Shown here: one piece after another, positions 1 to 5,609 of the stretch
Layout: each line of letters begins with the position of its first letter
Position numbering within the stretch: position 1 is the first letter of the stretch
Virus record (IMG/VR): IMGVR_UViG_2660238352_000014
Direction: 5' to 3' (one strand)
Source: a virus
Taxonomy: Duplodnaviria; Heunggongvirae; Uroviricota; Caudoviricetes
DNA: 5,625 nucleotides
Made by a program: the position numbers and the translations under genes
Notes under the pieces: model-generated
Databases searched by the model: none
Told to the model about the DNA's origin: nothing
The model's input: the letters and a program-made list of their open reading frames with translations, nothing else

Positions 1-1095
1 TACTACTGGAAGGAAAGGTATGCAGCGCCGTATGAGGCGGTTTACGGTGGGTATAAAGGCAAAGCTGCGCAGAATATTCACTTTGTGCCGTTGATGACGG
101 ATGAGCATGGTGTGAATGTGCCGACAAACGAGCCGTCAGAAGATCCGGACATTATCCCGGCGGGATACTATGGCGCTGCGTCACGCACTGCCAGTAACTG
201 GACGTCAGCCGATCGTAAAACGCACTTCAGTTCATGGGCGCGAAGAGGCCTTGTTTCAGACCGCCTGGCAGGTGCCATTTTGCAGTACGCCGGGCGGACA
301 TTATCGTTCCTTACCGGGCAGAGCGCACCGCAGTCGGGTGGTACAACTCCCGGTGATGATGTCAGTCCGGGGGTACCGGGTGTTGAGAAACCGCAGGATG
401 GCGGTGTTGCTGGTACTGGTCATGATGAGGCCGTGAGCAGTACCAGGACGGTGGCTGAATATGATGCGAACAGTGGAAATGGTGTATGGACAGAGCAGCA
501 GTGGGGGGCTGCCGGTGGCAAAGGCACTGTGACTGATGACGGTGGACGGAAAGCGCTGCGACTGGAAAAACAGCCCGGTAAACTGACGTCCTGGAAAATG
601 TTCCGTACTGTTGCAGTGGAGGAGGCAAAAAATCTTCTCAGCAAGGGGGGTGAAATTGCCGTACGGTTCAAAATTCCGGATGGAAGCGAACTGGTGAACG
701 GACAGTTTGTCTTTGGTCTCTACTGGCCGGTGTCGCAGTGGGCGTCAGGCGCGGCAGCAAACAGTATGCTGGCATCATTCTTCCTTCAGACGGATGCATC
801 AAATCTGAATCTTATGCACCACAAGGGCACGTCGAATGCACAACTGGGTACATTTGGTGCGTTTGACCATAACTGGCATACGGTTGTTTTCCGCTTTGCG
901 GGAAATAACAGCGAAAGAGTCGTTCCGGTGATTGATGGTACAGAGCAGACGGCGTTTGACCTTGTGATGTGGACAAATGATGGCTTTACAGCAGATACGC
1001 TGACGCTGACAGATATCACGGGGGCAAAAGCGACGTATCCTGTACTGCTTGATACGGTCACAGTCAAAGTTAACGAAAGCCGGGCATCATCATAA
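1..1095 (+). CDS. 3' portion of a large ORF (5' end outside window); C-terminal ~200 aa resemble a concanavalin-A/LamG-like lectin jelly-roll domain; possibly a NanS-p-type carbohydrate esterase moron or other glycan-binding phage protein
   Basis: Frame 1 is open from base 1 to TAA at 1093-1095, so the GTG at 85 in the ORF track is not the true start. C-terminal motifs such as FDHNWHTVVF and alternating hydrophobic beta-strand patterns are typical of lectin-like jelly rolls. In lambdoid prophages the position just upstream of S commonly carries such morons. Identity not verified. Confidence 0.6.
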   Translation, partial: YYWKERYAAPYEAVYGGYKGKAAQNIHFVPLMTDEHGVNVPTNEPSEDPDIIPAGYYGAASRTASNWTSADRKTHFSSWARRGLVSDRLAGAILQYAGRTLSFLTGQSAPQSGGTTPGDDVSPGVPGVEKPQDGGVAGTGHDEAVSSTRTVAEYDANSGNGVWTEQQWGAAGGKGTVTDDGGRKALRLEKQPGKLTSWKMFRTVAVEEAKNLLSKGGEIAVRFKIPDGSELVNGQFVFGLYWPVSQWASGAAANSMLASFFLQTDASNLNLMHHKGTSNAQLGTFGAFDHNWHTVVFRFAGNNSERVVPVIDGTEQTAFDLVMWTNDGFTADTLTLTDITGAKATYPVLLDTVTVKVNESRASS

Positions 1096-1234: not shown

Positions 1235-1429
1235 ATGACATTTGTTCATCAGGTGATGCTGTACTTCTGTACGGCGGTCTGTGTGCTGTATCTTCTTTCG
1301 GGTGGGTACAGGGCAGTGCGCGATTTCTGGCGCAGGCAGATTGATAAAAGGGCCGCAGAGAAAATCAGCGCCAGTCAGTCAGCCGGAGCAAAAACAGAAG
1401 CCCCACTCATTCCGGAACAACCTTCTTAA
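1235..1429 (+). CDS. Hypothetical small membrane protein (64 aa, one predicted TM helix)
   Basis: ORF with a hydrophobic stretch VMLYFCTAVCVLYLLSGG; weak SD (AAGAAA). Alternative frame 1281..1745 is open across this region, so the coding assignment is uncertain. Confidence 0.3.
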   Translation: MTFVHQVMLYFCTAVCVLYLLSGGYRAVRDFWRRQIDKRAAEKISASQSAGAKTEAPLIPEQPS

Positions 1430-1454
1430 TAACCCCTTTCAACGAGAAAATCCT

Positions 1455-1745
1455 ATGTCAGAAATAAAATCGCTGGTCACTGCTGAGGCAGTGAAGGAAG
1501 TCCTGCGCTCTGAAGAAGTCCGGAGCGCACTGAAACAGCAACTTCGGCAGAACCTTGAGGCGCGTCTTGATGCAGAAGTGGATGCCATTCTGGATGAATT
1601 GCTTGGTGCACAGCCGGAACCATCCCCGGAACTGCTTCCGGAACCACAGGCGGAAGATGTCACCACGGAAAATGGTGATATTCAGCCGGAGCCACCGGTG
1701 ACGGATATGACAGACACACAGCCAGAATCGGGCACAATGCTGTAA
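1455..1745 (+). CDS. Hypothetical acidic protein (96 aa) with Pro/Glu-rich C-terminal half
   Basis: ATG at 1455 follows the stop of the previous ORF. The N-terminal half looks helical (EVLRSEEVRSALKQQLRQNLEARLDAEVDAILDELL) and is followed by PEPSPELLPEPQ-type repeats. Codon usage is host-like. The SD is weak and I recognise no homolog. Confidence 0.45.
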   Translation: MSEIKSLVTAEAVKEVLRSEEVRSALKQQLRQNLEARLDAEVDAILDELLGAQPEPSPELLPEPQAEDVTTENGDIQPEPPVTDMTDTQPESGTML

Positions 1746-1771
1746 CGGTGAGTCAGGGTCATCAGTAAAGA

Positions 1772-1779
1772 GCTGGTGG
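1772..1779 (+). other. Chi site (5'-GCTGGTGG-3')
   Basis: Exact octamer match on + strand. Confidence 0.6.
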
Positions 1780-1820
1780 CCCTTTTGTTGTTGTGAGCTT
1801 CCGAGTACGGGAGACGGGGT

Positions 1821-2036
1821 ATGTACCAGATGGAAAAAATCACAACAGGTGTGTCATACACCACGTCAGCGGTGGGAACGGGCTACTGGTTCCTGCAGTT
1901 GCTGGACAGGGTTTCCCCGTCTCAGTGGGCGGCAATAGGCGTGCTGGGGAGTCTGCTGTTTGGGCTGCTGACATATCTGACTAACCTGTATTTCAAAATC
2001 AGAGAGGACCGTCGTAAGGCAGCGCGGGGAGAGTAA
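1821..2036 (+). CDS. S: Pinholin, phage 21 S21 family (71 aa; possible second start at Met4 giving 68 aa)
   Basis: By-memory near-identity to S21 over the core ([46 protein letters not shown]). Two TM segments, the first Gly/Ala/Ser/Thr-rich (SAR-like). SD GGGAGACGGGG precedes the ATG. Sits immediately upstream of a SAR endolysin. Confidence 0.9.
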
Positions 2037-2040
2037 GGCG

Positions 2041-2550
2041 ATGAATAAACAATACGAACTGGTTGTTAAAGGGATAAATAATTACCCGGATAAGATTACT
2101 GTTACTGTAGCGCTGGAAACGGGTGGGTATACGTCACTGTTGTTGCCAAATGTGGTGATTGATCTTGATCGTGTTGAAGGTGCCACGCTGGAATTTTACG
2201 AAGCTGAGGCGAAAAAGAAGGCGAAGCAGTTTTTCATGGATATTGCTGCCGGGTTATGTGAAGGGGATGAACAGTCACAGGAAAAGTGCCTTTGTTCCGA
2301 AGATCGGTATACCATACAAATTAACAATGCATATAACACGATACTGTCAGAAAAAGATGATATCGAATCACGCATTGAAAAACTGGAGAATTGCGTCGTT
2401 GAACTGAATAAAAAACTGTCGACGCTGATGCCTTCTGAAGATGCAAAAAAACGCCGCGATGAGCAGTTCGCGGCGTTTTACGATTATTGCATTGAAGTTA
2501 CTCGCAGGAATTTTGTGAAGGCTTTTGAGGAGAGTAAATCTCTTCAGTAA
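2041..2550 (+). CDS. Hypothetical protein (169 aa), inserted between holin and endolysin; N-terminal beta-rich region, C-terminal coiled-coil-like helices, three Cys (C-x11-C-x-C)
   Basis: ATG 4 nt after the holin stop, using the SD-like sequence at the holin 3' end. GC looks lower than flanking lysis genes (first 60 nt about 30% GC by hand count). No recognisable homolog. Confidence 0.6.
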   Translation: MNKQYELVVKGINNYPDKITVTVALETGGYTSLLLPNVVIDLDRVEGATLEFYEAEAKKKAKQFFMDIAAGLCEGDEQSQEKCLCSEDRYTIQINNAYNTILSEKDDIESRIEKLENCVVELNKKLSTLMPSEDAKKRRDEQFAAFYDYCIEVTRRNFVKAFEESKSLQ

Positions 2551-2758
2551 GCTTAATGGCGGACGCTGCAATTAATTCAGGAAGGTCCGCAAGGTCATCT
2601 GTCAGTGGGAATGATGAAAAATCGGCGGCAGTTCTGTTAAGAATTGCTTTAACTAATTCCTTTTCCTCATCCGGCAACACGTTGATTAGAGCTACGACTG
2701 CTTGCCTGAGTGCGATTAAATCAGCAAAAGTTTGTTTTGGTAGATTTGGATAATCCAT
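2498..2758 (-). CDS. Hypothetical small acidic protein (86 aa), convergent with and overlapping the 3' end of the 169-aa ORF by 53 bp
   Basis: ATG at 2758-2756 (minus) is preceded by a strong SD (minus-strand ACAGAGGTGACT-ATG). The longer ORF-track start at 2830 has no SD. AT-rich codons (CTA, TTA, AGA) match the neighbouring inserted gene. Product is acidic and predicted helical. Confidence 0.5.
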   Translation of the reverse strand: MDYPNLPKQTFADLIALRQAVVALINVLPDEEKELVKAILNRTAADFSSFPLTDDLADLPELIAASAIKLTEEIYSPQKPSQNSCE

Positions 2759-2793
2759 AGTCACCTCTGTGTTTATCAGATTGACATACCCTG

Positions 2794-2812
2794 GCCAGTG
2801 CCCACCACTGGC
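2794..2812. promoter_or_regulatory. Perfect inverted repeat GCCAGTG-cccac-CACTGGC in the divergent intergenic region between the 86-aa minus gene and the endolysin; candidate operator or RNA hairpin
   Basis: 7-bp arms with 5-nt spacer seen directly; a perfect TTGACA hexamer lies at 2781-2786 on the + strand but lacks a convincing -10. Confidence 0.3.
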
Positions 2813-2869
2813 GGGGTGAAGGCTTAACATATCCAGGGATTCGGAACCGATAAATCCTGATAAATATCC

Positions 2870-3403
2870 ATGAACGCAAAAATCAAATACGGCCTGTCAG
2901 CTGCTGTTCTGGCGCTGATTGCTGCAGGCGCGTCTGCTCCTCAGATACTTGACCAGTTTCTGGACGAAAAAGAGGGTAACCACACAACGGCATACCGTGA
3001 TGGTGCAGGTATCTGGACCATCTGCCGTGGTGCCATCATGGTGGATGGCAAACCTGTCGTTCCGGGCATGAAGTTGTCGAAGGAAAAATGCGACCAGGTT
3101 AACGCCATTGAGCGTGATAAAGCGCTGGCGTGGGTGGAGAAAAACATCAGAGTGCTGCTGACCGAACCCCAGAAAGCGGGGATCGCGTCATTCTGTCCGT
3201 ACAACATTGGTCCCGGTAAGTGTTTCCCGTCGACGTTTTACAGACGAATTAATGCTGGTGATCGCAGGGGAGCATGCGAGGCGATTCGCTGGTGGATTAA
3301 GGACGGTGGCAGAGACTGCCGTATTCGCTCAAATAACTGTTACGGTCAGGTATCCCGTCGTGACCAGGAGAGTGCGCTGGCGTGCTGGGGAATTGACAGA
3401 TAA
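2870..3403 (+). CDS. R: SAR endolysin (signal-arrest-release lysozyme, T4-lysozyme/GH24 fold, R21-like), 177 aa
   Basis: N-terminal weakly hydrophobic Gly/Ala-rich SAR domain (GLSAAVLALIAAGASAPQ). Catalytic triad spacing E-x8-D-x5-T in KEGNHTTAYRDGAGIWT. By-memory similarity to phage 21 R (..GVWT.C.G.., ..RINAGD..GACE.IRWW..). Paired with a pinholin. No canonical SD upstream of the ATG. Confidence 0.9.
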   Translation: MNAKIKYGLSAAVLALIAAGASAPQILDQFLDEKEGNHTTAYRDGAGIWTICRGAIMVDGKPVVPGMKLSKEKCDQVNAIERDKALAWVEKNIRVLLTEPQKAGIASFCPYNIGPGKCFPSTFYRRINAGDRRGACEAIRWWIKDGGRDCRIRSNNCYGQVSRRDQESALACWGIDR

Positions 3404-3492
3404 GCAGAATATTTTGCTGAAAAATGCGGTTTGCTCACACGGGCGGATAACACGAAATCCTGCGAACTGACAAAAACTAAGTGAATAAAAGT

Positions 3493-3533
3493 AAAAACCC
3501 CGTTTGTTGGCTGCAAGCGGGGTTTTGTGTTTC
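3493..3533. terminator. Rho-independent terminator, probably bidirectional, downstream of the endolysin gene
   Basis: Stem AACCCCG(TTTG)/(CAAG)CGGGGTT with a ~7-nt loop followed by TTTTGTGTTTC on the + strand; A-rich run upstream gives a U-tract on the minus strand as well. Confidence 0.65.
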
Positions 3534-3559
3534 TGACCTTGGATAAGGCAAGGGAGAAC

Positions 3560-3742
3560 ATGGAAAAGTATAAACGAATTCTGTTGAGGTTGACTATGAA
3601 AAACGGCCTTGAACTGAAAGCGCCTGTAACTGATGACATCAGCAGAGCACTGGCTTTTGCCATTAAGTGGGTGGCGGTCGGTGTTGCTGTGTCCCCGATG
3701 CTGTATGGGCTGGCAAAACTGGTCATTGCGTTGAAATCGTGA
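3560..3742 (+). CDS. Hypothetical small membrane protein (60 aa; basic N-terminus, C-terminal TM helix)
   Basis: ATG at 3560 preceded by AAGGGAGA. The ORF-track start at 3527 is a GTG inside the terminator U-tract and is unlikely. TM segment [28 protein letters not shown]. Confidence 0.45.
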
Positions 3743-3756
3743 AGGGAGGATTAAGC

Positions 3757-3888
3757 ATGTCAGACAAACTCATAACGCTGGCGAAGATCCTCTGTGTAAT
3801 TGTCGGCATTTCATTTTCACTAATGCTGGTTGCTCTTTTTCTTTCCATGGCCTGGATGATGTTGTCTTCGTCGGGGCTGCTGGGGTGA
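3757..3888 (+). CDS. Hypothetical small hydrophobic peptide (43 aa, single TM helix); its stop overlaps the Rz start (GTGA)
   Basis: Strong SD AGGGAGG 6 nt upstream of ATG 3757. TM segment [26 protein letters not shown]. The stop/start overlap with the next gene suggests translational coupling. Confidence 0.4.
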
Positions 3889-4358
3889 ACATAAACCGAA
3901 TGCTTTCCGCGTTTATCGTTATTCTGCTGGTGGCCTGTGGAGCGCTGTGGATGGCAACAGACCATTACCGTGATAACGCGATTACCTACAAAGCGCAGCG
4001 CGATAACAAAGCCAGTGAACTGAAGCTGGCGAACGCAACCATTACTGATATGCAGGTGCGCCAGCGCGATGTTGCTGCGCTCGATGCAAAATACTCGAGG
4101 GAATTAGCTGATGCGAGAGCTGAAAATGAAACTTTTCGCGCTGACGTTGCCGCTGGTCGTAAGCGCCTGCGTATCAACGCCACCTGTCCAGGTCCCGTGC
4201 GTGAAGCCACCGGCACCGCCCGCGTGGATAATGCAACCGGCCCCCGACTGGCAGACACCGTTACACGGGATTATTTCACCCTCAGAGAGCGGCTGATGAC
4301 GATGCAGAAGCAACTGGAAGGGGCGCAGGAATATATCCGTACTCAGTGCATTAAGTAG
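3885..4358 (+). CDS. Rz: Rz i-spanin (inner-membrane spanin subunit); start either GTG 3885 or ATG 3900
   Basis: By-memory strong similarity to lambda Rz ([46 protein letters not shown]...R.DVAAGR.RL.I.A.C...REAT....[33 protein letters not shown]). N-terminal TM helix followed by a coiled-coil periplasmic domain. Confidence 0.9.
3926..3933 (+). other. Chi site (5'-GCTGGTGG-3') inside Rz
   Basis: Exact octamer match on + strand. Confidence 0.6.
4111..4296 (+). CDS. Rz1: Rz1 o-spanin (outer-membrane lipoprotein spanin subunit), fully embedded in the +1 frame of Rz
   Basis: Signal peptide with lipobox LVVSAC (Cys20) followed by a proline-rich mature region ([30 protein letters not shown]) closely matching lambda Rz1 by memory. 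SD GAGGGA lies upstream of ATG 4111. Confidence 0.85.
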
Positions 4359-4381
4359 TCTTTTTATTATCCGGAGGATGT

Positions 4382-4606
4382 ATGAAGAAATTACTGGTAA
4401 CCGTAAAGCCTTTTCAGGGAACAATTCCGTTCCGTATTTTGCAGCGTGGTCGTGTTCTTGTTGAAGGTTCGTTCAGTGGTAAATGTACGCAATTACACTC
4501 CCGGACCTTTCAGGTGAATGCCACGAATGAAGAGCTAACCGTTGAGTGTACGATGAATGCCGCTAAATGCCGCATGGTATCCGCTGCATTACAGCCAGTG
4601 TGTTGA
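4382..4606 (+). CDS. Hypothetical protein (74 aa), conserved-looking small ORF downstream of Rz
   Basis: Strong SD (GGAGGA) 5 nt upstream of the ATG and host-like codon usage. No signal peptide or TM helix. Four Cys residues. Function unknown. Confidence 0.5.
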   Translation: MKKLLVTVKPFQGTIPFRILQRGRVLVEGSFSGKCTQLHSRTFQVNATNEELTVECTMNAAKCRMVSAALQPVC

Positions 4607-4887
4607 GCGACCTTATTATCCATGCGCGGTATTGTCGCCGTATTCCTGCATTAACAGAGACCGCAGCCCGACCGGGAGACTCCTCTGCGCGAGTGTGCGG
4701 GGATAATCAAAAACGATACACACCGGGGTTTACCGCGTTAACGGAGCGCGGCGTTGTCCCCTCATGGTCGCTGGTCCGGTGCGATGGTGGAAGAAACCGG
4801 ACGATGTGTTACCTCGCAAGCTCTGTTATGTCATGTGTCTGATTTGTGATTTAAGTCGGATAATTGTCGTTGCCATTAAACAGAGGA

Positions 4888-4930
4888 TTGATGACCGACA
4901 GGGTGGCATTGTTAGAATAAGACTTATTCT
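4888..4930 (+). promoter_or_regulatory. Putative sigma70 promoter (-35 TTGATG 4888-4893; extended -10 TGtTAGAAT 4910-4918) overlapped by a perfect palindrome AGAATAAG-a-CTTATTCT (4914-4930), upstream of the TonB-C-domain gene
   Basis: Hexamers and palindrome read directly from the sequence. The -35/-10 spacer is 19 bp, which is suboptimal, so the promoter call is tentative. The palindrome is exact. Confidence 0.35.
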
Positions 4931-4944
4931 TATCTGTGCCGGGA

Positions 4945-5277
4945 ATGAAAATGAAAAGAAATCTTCCGTTAATTATTTTGTTGTCTTCTCTGGTTATGGG
5001 CTGTACGCAACATAAAACAGATATGCCCCGACAGTTGGTTAAGGCATTACCACAATATCCGGCCTATGCAGCGGCAAATTATATAAAGGGACGGGTTGAT
5101 GTGAAGTTTGATATTGGTGCTGATGGTACTGTCACCCGAATTGAGTTTATCCGTTCAGAGCCGCACCATTTGTTTGATGAGCAGGTTGTAAAGGCGATGG
5201 CAAAATGGCGATTTGAGAAGGACAGGCCGTGTAAAGGCGTGAAGAAAACGTTTATCTTTAGTCCTTCTGCACCCTGA
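4945..5277 (+). CDS. Probable lipoprotein consisting of a stand-alone TonB C-terminal domain (TonB_C fold); start at ATG 4945 or 4951
   Basis: N-terminal signal peptide with lipobox-like LVMGC. The remainder aligns by eye with the E. coli TonB C-terminal domain: PQYPAYAAANYIKGRVDVKFDIGADGTVTRIEFIRSEPHHLFDEQVVKAMAKWRFEKDRP against TonB [60 protein letters not shown]. There is no TonB N-terminal TM anchor and no proline-rich spacer. Confidence 0.7.
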   Translation: MKMKRNLPLIILLSSLVMGCTQHKTDMPRQLVKALPQYPAYAAANYIKGRVDVKFDIGADGTVTRIEFIRSEPHHLFDEQVVKAMAKWRFEKDRPCKGVKKTFIFSPSAP

Positions 5278-5408: not shown

Positions 5409-5609
5409 TCATTTCTCGTTATTTTTCATGCTGGCCGGGCGCAGATGCGTTGCATCTGTTGCCAGCCTTCTCCTGCAGGCTTCAATAACCCACGCTGAAA
5501 AGTTACCGGACCCTTTATGCTCAAGGGCGATGCTGATCTGTTCAATCATGTGATTGGGGAAACGGATATTGCGGGTTGTGGTTCTGCGGGTCCGGTTTTT
5601 CGATGACAT
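5409..5609 (-). CDS. Small conserved lambdoid-prophage protein (66 aa), ribbon-helix-helix-like; resembles the YlcI/YnfO-type proteins found upstream of terminase genes in E. coli prophages (from memory)
   Basis: Good SD (AAGGAA) upstream of the minus-strand ATG at 5609-5607. The motif TRNIRFPNHMIEQISIALEHKGSGNFSAWVIEACRRRL is consistent with a beta-strand followed by two helices. Convergent with the TonB-C gene. Confidence 0.6.
   Translation of the reverse strand: MSSKNRTRRTTTRNIRFPNHMIEQISIALEHKGSGNFSAWVIEACRRRLATDATHLRPASMKNNEK

Follow-up and report, generated by a model that had tools for sequence, protein, structure and literature searches.

The stretch of DNA analysed here, referred to throughout as the window, comprises the 5,625 nucleotides of the Caudoviricetes record IMGVR_UViG_2660238352_000014 in IMG/VR and is the late region of a lambdoid, Shiga toxin (Stx) phage-like prophage of Escherichia coli. 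Our analysis focuses on a small open reading frame (ORF) of its plus strand, 1455..1745, whose product belongs to the DUF826 family. Together with the genes of a NanS-p-type esterase and of a DUF1378 membrane protein, this ORF forms a cassette that lambdoid prophages carry in the Q-dependent late region, just ahead of the pinholin gene; phage PhiR5_1, which is 99.7% identical over the 721 nucleotides compared, shows the order Q ... nanS-p, DUF1378, DUF826, S. A first-pass annotation, made from the letters of the sequence alone, had described the product as an acidic, partly helical protein and had suggested an accessory function as a protein or DNA mimic. The observation itself is confirmed by our analysis, while the interpretation is supported in part. 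The features on which the argument depends are the following.

85..1095, plus strand: 3' part of a nanS-p-type SASA/DUF6645 carbohydrate esterase gene (Pfam DUF6645, E=3e-33; positions 322-632 of 634 in phrog_143)
1235..1429, plus strand: DUF1378 gene, 64 amino acids (Pfam PF07125, E=4.5e-35; phrog_494)
1341..1454, plus strand: upstream extension of the DUF826 frame from TTG 1341, with a GTG farther up at 1281, overlapping DUF1378 in the +1 frame; judged not coding
1441..1454, plus strand: translation-initiation region of DUF826, with a weak Shine-Dalgarno-like motif (GAGA) 7 nucleotides ahead of the ATG
1455..1745, plus strand: DUF826 gene; codons 1-51 for a helical domain, codons 52-96 for an acidic Pro/Glu tail with the tip ...GTML (PF05696, phrog_311, structure model, substitution rates)
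1755..1793, plus strand: terminator-like element, a 12-bp G+C-rich hairpin (1755-1783) followed by TTTGTTGTTG
1821..2036, plus strand: S21-type pinholin gene (Pfam Phage_holin_2_1, E=9e-33), starting 75 nucleotides downstream of DUF826

The 5' part of nanS-p, the first gene of the cassette, lies outside the window; the RefSeq name for the product of 85..1095 is 'SASA family carbohydrate esterase'.

The ORF at 1455..1745 comprises 291 nucleotides, starts with ATG and encodes 96 amino acids, exactly as first described. Its product matches Pfam DUF826 (PF05696) with 100.2 bits, the cut-off being 25, and with E=7.1e-29, its residues 1-57 covering positions 1-59 of the 75 in the profile, and it matches phrog_311 over its full length (E=2.7e-37). 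The only other PHROG with a match is phrog_8301, and both groups are of unknown function. In a collection of 5.8 billion proteins we found 105 homologous protein clusters, and every named one is DUF826; according to a hidden Markov model search of 1.84 billion representative proteins the family is tiny, with 51 clusters, all of them DUF826. Copies of the 291 nucleotides with 100% identity are present in the chromosome of E. coli strain 2018-166 and in IMG/VR contigs. An alignment-based scan of the GTDB representative genomes yielded pattern matches only and no confirmed relative, and Fels-1 contains only a remnant of a short form, which is uninformative. The frame is conserved across relatives, a point which the first-pass annotation had left to be checked. 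The ratio of non-synonymous to synonymous substitution rates (dN/dS), calculated by the pairwise Nei-Gojobori method for ten diverged alleles, is 0.03-0.35 in codons 1-51, which points to strong purifying selection, and reaches roughly 0.3-1.2 in the codons of the fast-evolving tail; the frame is hence under selection, mostly in its first half. The ORF is a genuine gene and a textbook member of DUF826, a catalogued family of unknown function; identical copies of it are already annotated.

What databases disagree on is the start codon. The entry 933W L0106 uses the long frame from the GTG, many older calls of the NCBI Prokaryotic Genome Annotation Pipeline (PGAP) give 134 amino acids from TTG 1341, and current RefSeq annotates the form with 96 amino acids. 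Judged by the comparison of loci, ATG 1455 is the true start, because diverged loci shift the frame of DUF1378 relative to DUF826 (0, 1 or 2), close the extension (after 8 codons in locus L093 and after 25 in L088) and carry Shine-Dalgarno motifs in front of the homologous ATG; these motifs are strong ones (AGGAG, GGGAGG, GGAGG), while among close relatives CAACGAGAAAATCCT-ATG is kept. The conserved protein block begins at the Met equivalent to ATG 1455, and all family members start it with Met-x-Glu-Ile-Lys. It is very improbable that the real product is longer, i.e. the ORF of 154 or 134 amino acids from GTG 1281 or TTG 1341, or else a fusion of DUF1378 and DUF826 by +1 slippage at GAT AAA AGG (1343-1351), which would anchor the acidic domain at the membrane. 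The extension is indeed free of stops, over 62-70 codons, in 50 of the 51 distinct close variants, and this open frame accounts for widespread mis-annotation (933W L0106, the 134-amino-acid PGAP proteins, phrog_8301); furthermore, the site 1343-1351 pairs an A-run with the rare Arg codon AGG, and it is precisely at this site that the two halves of the singleton database proteins P0032 and P0069 are joined. However, the extension of L024 contains a stop, the site in L036 reads AAA AGC and not AAA AGG, to judge from the protein sequences of that locus, and the fusions are single sequences, consistent with errors or mutations of one nucleotide. On these grounds a programmed +1 frameshift was rejected as a conserved feature. 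The two competitors that had been named for this gene fall away: the ORF 1235..1429 is a separate real gene, DUF1378, and the long ORF from 1281 is not conserved in diverged relatives. Two side observations concern the same region: DUF1378 carries three AGG codons in 64, and the DUF1378-DUF826 fusions among singleton database proteins include P0034 and P0111 in addition to P0032 and P0069.

A different label, 'head completion protein', is attached to DUF826 in the records of a series of induced E. coli phages (GenBank PV340545-PV340554; L001 6356-6646). It was rejected, since there is no Pfam match to a head-completion or connector family and no support in the virion proteomics as far as the published table is accessible. 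The correct model is hence the 96-amino-acid product from ATG 1455, and neither the forms of 134-154 amino acids nor a head completion protein.

The product contains 22 Asp/Glu against 7 Lys/Arg, with a net charge of about -15.5, an isoelectric point (pI) of about 4.05 and a grand average of hydropathy of -0.57; no transmembrane segment, hydrophobic stretch or signal peptide was found in it. Two halves can be distinguished. Residues 1-51 are amphipathic and free of Pro, whereas residues 52-96 include 11 acidic residues, no basic one and 9 Pro, giving the tail a charge of about -11. In an AlphaFold2 (AF2) model, built with an alignment of 12 sequences, a short helix (residues 10-17) and a long one (20-49) are predicted at a per-residue confidence (pLDDT) of about 90, and residues 50-96 form a low-confidence coil (pLDDT below 55, about 40-50). 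Half of the acidic residues (11 of 22) lie in this intrinsically disordered tail, the other 11 along the helices. Both the composition and the model agree with the first-pass description of a strongly acidic product with an amphipathic helical N-terminal half. Its PEP/PEL repeats are present as well, yet they are weak and degenerate: CCGGAA (Pro-Glu) occurs three times at a spacing of 12 nucleotides from 1614, a fourth unit, GCGGAA, closes the last copy, CAGCCGGA(A/G)CCA stands at 1611 and again at 1683, position 1635 having a CTTCC variant of it, and no array was scored by Tandem Repeats Finder.

Conservation follows the same division. Among 12 close members there are 40 invariant columns, nearly all of them in residues 1-51, and T9, V13, K14, K27, V42 and G51 do not vary even in members with as little as 34% identity. 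In the 37 variants compared, tail length ranges from 28 to 50 residues; a tail has 4-12 acidic residues, 4-10 Pro and 0-1 basic residues, a number that rises to 3 only in the most distant variant, and it always ends hydrophobic, in GTML, VMML, (D/E)MMM, ATML, ATLL, ATTL, SAMM or ATILP. What is conserved in the tail is its composition and its C-terminal tip and not its sequence, which is the signature to be expected of a flexible tail with a short terminal motif. A second group of the family consists of cores of 59-60 amino acids with the helical domain only, called as 79 amino acids when the start is set farther upstream.

Searches for a known relative of this architecture identified the family and nothing else. 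A profile search of the PDB gave no significant match (best E=0.11 and 0.48), and Foldseek returned 0 matches in the PDB for the model, a result that says little because the model consists of hardly more than a single long helix and disordered residues. No PADLOC or NCBIfam family is matched by the product, and Pfam at E<=0.1 adds to DUF826 only one insignificant match to NNH5. The homology and structure searches that the first-pass annotation had pointed to therefore lead to DUF826/phrog_311 and to no PDB entry by sequence or fold.

More informative is the genomic neighbourhood. In IMG/VR we examined 80 loci, all of them close relatives; the following denominators are the loci with enough flanking sequence. 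DUF1378 is immediately upstream of DUF826 in 78/78, the esterase gene is upstream of DUF1378 in 72/72, and the pinholin gene is downstream of DUF826 in 71/71. The order SASA/DUF6645, DUF1378, DUF826, P21-type holin is retained at the loci of P0110, P0114 and P0116 (43-48% identity), and wherever a diverged long-form locus extends far enough upstream, DUF1378 precedes DUF826. Particularly informative is a variant with 48% identity, P0115 (910 blocks of the assembly index), which resides in a Mu-like E. coli prophage and occurs in 207 complete E. coli genomes. Its locus reads tail-fibre assembly gene, gin invertase, SASA/DUF6645, DUF1378, DUF826, an ORF of 66 amino acids of unknown function, com, mom; no lysis gene was found nearby and no holin adjoins the cassette. 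The identical P0115 DUF826 protein is found beside two DUF1378 alleles that differ strongly from each other, a sign of recombination inside the cassette. Because the order survives both divergence and the move into a Mu-like type of phage, the conserved unit is a three-gene cassette of esterase, DUF1378 and DUF826, and not DUF826 and a holin. The first-pass remark that the gene lies just upstream of the holin is hence true at this locus and does not describe the conserved association. As a side observation, the esterase of the Mu-like loci L084-L087 (about 2600-5250), located between gin and com/mom, has no detectable DUF1737 capsid-binding domain.

DUF1378 is a single-pass membrane protein, whose N-terminal transmembrane helix leads into a basic juxtamembrane helix with the conserved pattern GGY(R/K)xxRxxxR(R/K)xID; the charge of its tail is about +2.8 and its pI is ~10. 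From the positive-inside rule we infer an N-out/C-in topology, by which the basic helix would share the compartment of DUF826.

Co-transcription of the cassette is likely, because no plus-strand promoter was found between nanS-p and DUF826: a crude consensus scan of 1000-2900 detected no plus-strand sigma-70-like site, the region upstream of nanS-p being outside the window. The sole promoter-like site in this interval is on the minus strand (2640-2611). Downstream of DUF826, the segment 1743-1822 (80 nucleotides) has a minimum free energy of -29.2 kcal/mol (z=-2.76), and a G+C-rich hairpin, mostly with a T-rich tract, follows the stop codon of DUF826 in the majority of the 25 distinct sequences compared, although the stems differ. 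These include L002, L021, L084, L088, L094, L096, L097 and L101, among them a Mu-like locus and the short-form loci L094 and L101. If the cassette of a lambdoid prophage were transcribed independently of Q, this hairpin would shield the lysis genes. Another hairpin, GCCGCCAGC...GCTGGCGG at 1108-1139, stands right after the esterase stop; because A7 precedes it, it reads as an intrinsic terminator of the minus strand, and no minus-strand gene ends nearby.

In a census of 5426 complete E. coli genomes, 1052 contain DUF826, at 2709 places in all, and 1017 contain DUF1378, at 2652 places, so that the two genes almost agree in copy number. The DNA for the C-terminal part of NanS-p is found at 3655 places in 1554 genomes, whereas a match to at least part of the 5.6-kb window, a good deal of it lysis genes, is present in 4428. 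Since so few of the genomes with any match carry DUF826, it is not a core gene; these numbers and the order in PhiR5_1 bear out the placement in a Q-to-S accessory (moron) zone that the first-pass annotation had proposed.

Forms with the long acidic tail and hydrophobic tip are confined to loci that contain SASA and DUF1378, and the tail-less forms of 59-79 amino acids are found in other cassettes. These tail-less forms lie beside proteins of phrog_4603 (178 amino acids, from the first gene), phrog_6804 (287 amino acids), Methyltransf_23 and phrog_1924, in a cassette between Rz and the terminase gene, with DUF826 on either side of it (L101 5306-7944; L095 2898-4901). PHROGs labels phrog_4603 as 'alpha-2,3-sialyltransferase'; a Pfam match to MptE-like is below threshold, and a PDB sequence search left the label unconfirmed. 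The four-gene cassette of L101 and L095 could be a module for the modification of virion or surface glycans. A 'sialic acid' theme shared by the cassettes of long and short forms is a weak lead.

Stx-converting and related prophages are medically important, but little of what they carry between stx and the lysis genes has been explained so far. NanS-p has long been treated as a metabolic conversion gene. According to a recent preprint (bioRxiv 10.64898/2026.04.10.717836), however, NanS-p (gp84) of phage phi24B is a self-processing protein that decorates the capsid: its N-terminal DUF1737 domain binds the face-centre hexons as a hexamer, and processing takes place once it has left the cell. This makes DUF1378 and DUF826, the small genes that always come after nanS-p, obvious candidates for the control of its assembly, processing or activity. 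Some Stx2a phages have ORFs of DUF826 and DUF1378 between nanS-p and S, and the only papers that mention either family in the context of nanS-p and S report just this presence (PMC10462455). In the same study the nanS-p transcript rises by 1-2.4 log on addition of mitomycin C, which is consistent with Q-dependent late transcription. A literature search by the locus tags ECs1208-1210, Z1467 and L0106 revealed nothing relevant on DUF826, and the passages searched of a paper on expression in phi24B lysogens (PMC3342100) contain nothing on the DUF826 gene.

Based on these results we tentatively favour, at somewhat less than an even chance, the view that DUF826 is a late-made, non-virion, cytoplasmic partner of NanS-p and/or DUF1378. 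After induction of the prophage the protein would be synthesised late and would stay in the cytoplasm, where its helical domain would dock or oligomerise and the polyanionic tail with its hydrophobic tip would serve as a tethered, flexible ligand. This ligand could be directed at DUF1378, by way of its basic cytoplasmic helix, or at NanS-p, by way of its esterase/lectin part, and the effect could be that NanS-p is restrained or chaperoned until capsid decoration and lysis. That DUF826 acts together with other products of the cassette is suggested by the long tail, because the tail is found only alongside DUF1378 and the esterase. DUF826 is probably neither a DNA mimic nor, in its own right, a lysis protein; a cassette helper is more likely.

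Several points weigh against this partnership. There is no direct evidence of a physical interaction, and the case is one of guilt by association, for genes that are separated by less than 400 bp; because of this short distance, simple co-inheritance could produce much of the linkage. The helical domain has a role independent of SASA and DUF1378, because tail-less relatives occur without them. The combination of one P0115 DUF826 protein with two quite different DUF1378 variants argues against tight co-evolution, and the esterase may not need DUF826, because nanS-p-like DNA is found at more places than DUF826 (3655 versus 2709). Finally, the absence from the virion is a weak negative. The proteome table of phi24B names ORFs by genome coordinates, with gp84 at 23254-25248 (10.64898/2026.04.10.717836), and among the entries listed there is no ORF starting at 25,200-25,799, where DUF1378 and DUF826 would be expected, and no DUF826 peptide string; this says little, because DUF826 yields few tryptic peptides.

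Should DUF826 be only a passenger, the finding would be an ordinary one. What is gained is a defined three-gene cassette, which is also found in Mu-like prophages; the decoration role of NanS-p makes the function of DUF826 directly testable, and the conserved C-terminal tip offers a simple mutational handle.

An alternative that we consider unlikely places DUF826 in the timing of lysis: DUF1378 would be holin- or antiholin-like and DUF826 its cytoplasmic partner, whose acidic tail, bound to the basic C-terminus that the S21-type pinholin (or else DUF1378) has in the cytoplasm, would tune the time of membrane permeabilisation. Cytoplasmic antiholin factors such as T4 RIII follow an analogous logic. 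The position directly upstream of the pinholin gene, in all 71 of the close loci as well as in the diverged lambdoid loci, speaks for such a role, and so does the fact that the pinholin product ends in a basic sequence, opposite in charge to the DUF826 tail. Tail-less relatives also appear near lysis genes, directly after Rz/Rz1 in L101, L103 and L104, and in L094 such a form precedes a KilA-N/ORF11CD3 gene; in 933W an antirepressor-like gene sits between R and Rz. On the other hand, a conserved terminator-like hairpin separates DUF826 from S, the Mu-like prophage carries the cassette far from any lysis gene, and in L095 the short form is located across another cassette, adjoining the terminase gene. 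Lysis does not need DUF826, because only 1052 genomes contain it against the 4428 that match part of the window. Moreover, the transmembrane segments typical of holins and antiholins are carried by DUF1378 and S but not by DUF826. Two features of the pinholin gene itself may be added here: a small hairpin, GCTTCCG-agta-CGGGAG (1798-1813, plus strand), overlaps its ribosome-binding site, and there are two in-frame starts (1821-1832; MYQMEK, Met1 and Met4). This dual start and hairpin resemble the 71/68 antiholin/holin pair of S21 and the sdi structure of lambda.

A sharper version of the partnership with the cassette, in which DUF826 proteins are dedicated partners of phage-borne sialic-acid enzymes and the long polyanionic Pro/Thr/Glu tail, with a free hydrophobic C-terminus, is a protein mimic of an acidic glycan, appears quite unlikely to us. 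In such a model the tail would plug the lectin/esterase site of NanS-p, or tether NanS-p to DUF1378, and the capsid-decorating esterase would be kept inactive, unprocessed or correctly targeted until lysis.

The first-pass proposal of a nucleic-acid or protein mimic with an anti-restriction or anti-defence function, acting through negative charge, is improbable and found no positive support in our searches. It is true that the product is small and very acidic, with a pI of about 4 and a net charge of -15.5, and that the gene is an accessory one, present in only some of the related prophages. However, neither Ocr, ArdA nor any other such family is matched in Pfam, PADLOC, NCBIfam or the PDB, by sequence or fold, and half of the charge is located in a disordered, Pro-rich tail without sequence conservation, whereas known DNA mimics present rigid arrays of charge. 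The gene is furthermore strictly linked to an esterase and a membrane protein. It lies downstream of Q and is expressed with the late genes; DUF826 would come too late to protect entering DNA, because it belongs to a late transcription unit induced by mitomycin C (PMC10462455).

Slightly more improbable again is an addiction or abortive-infection module that hitch-hikes with nanS-p, in which DUF826 would be the labile antidote to a toxic, Hok- or holin-like DUF1378. DUF826 would have to be protease-sensitive, with the disordered tail and non-polar C-terminus as a degron; in E. coli, non-polar C-termini promote degradation, and DUF826 has both the disorder and the non-polar end. The two genes, always adjacent, are found at nearly equal numbers of places, and their products have opposite charges (about +2.8 for the DUF1378 tail against about -15.5 for DUF826). 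Yet no similarity to a toxin-antitoxin or defence family and no promoter of their own was detected, the pair belongs to a late lytic transcript and is not arranged for constitutive expression in the lysogen, and tail-less DUF826 occurs without DUF1378. The probability left over from the readings named here goes to something else.

The remainder of the window consists of lysis genes and further small genes, as follows.

2041..2550, plus strand: YdfR/DUF1327 gene, inserted between the pinholin and endolysin genes
2498-2758, minus strand: phrog_2572 gene, 86 amino acids, convergent with YdfR/DUF1327 and overlapping its 3' end by 53 nucleotides
2870..3403, plus strand: lysozyme gene, product with a hydrophobic N-terminus
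3527/3560..3742 and 3667/3757..3888, plus strand: two small ORFs with hydrophobic stretches between endolysin and Rz, without PADLOC or NCBIfam match
3885..4358, plus strand: Rz
4111..4296, plus strand: nested ORF read as Rz1 by its position and lipoprotein-like sequence
4936..5277, plus strand: gene of a lipoprotein with a TonB_C domain (lipobox LVMGC; Pfam TonB_C, 1.4e-14; TIGR01352; 'Rz-like spanin' in PHROGs, phrog_1267)
5409..5609, minus strand: YlcI/DUF3950 gene

From its hydrophobic N-terminus we take the lysozyme to be of the signal-anchor-release (SAR) type. The lipoprotein of 4936-5277 could act as a TonB-domain decoy in the envelope and interfere with TonB-dependent uptake or with phage entry.

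When DUF826 is compared with known systems, its nearest counterparts are of course the relatives within DUF826/phrog_311, for instance the DUF826 portion of 933W L0106, the H0118-H0120 region of VT2-Sakai and RefSeq proteins. They share the N-terminal block MSEI(K/T)SLVTAEAVKEVLRSEEVRSALKQ(Q/K)LRQNLEARLDAEVDAILDELLG and the same place between DUF1378 and the pinholin gene; they differ in the tail, for which the window has a variant with 'QPEPSPELLPEPQ...GTML' in 96 amino acids, 933W one with '...VMML' in 90, and other prophages '...MMM' in 81-89.

With T7 Ocr, ArdA and T4 Arn, DUF826 has only the small size and the strong negative charge in common. It differs from them in that there is no similarity of sequence or fold, that half of its charge is carried by a disordered, non-conserved tail, and that it is located late and linked to an esterase. 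The morons of lambdoid phages (bor, lom, stx) can be compared with respect to gene organization: the cassette, too, is an insert in the late operon that is missing from related prophages, it has its own terminator-like hairpin, and the block has moved into a Mu-like prophage. In the crude scan no promoter of its own was found before DUF1378 or DUF826, and the lead gene nanS-p is reported to encode a virion protein and would hence not be purely a gene of lysogenic conversion.

With regard to protein architecture, E. coli single-stranded DNA-binding protein (SSB, ...DDDIPF) and T7 gp2.5 have an acidic tail whose hydrophobic tip serves as a docking ligand. DUF826 has no OB fold, no sequence similarity to SSB, and a tip of (T/M)M(L/M) and not IPF, so that we speak of an analogy and not of membership. 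The layout is nevertheless alike, with an N-terminal domain that folds or oligomerises, a drifting acidic linker and a conserved hydrophobic tip, and SSB and T7 gp2.5 may thus represent the closest analogy in design to DUF826.

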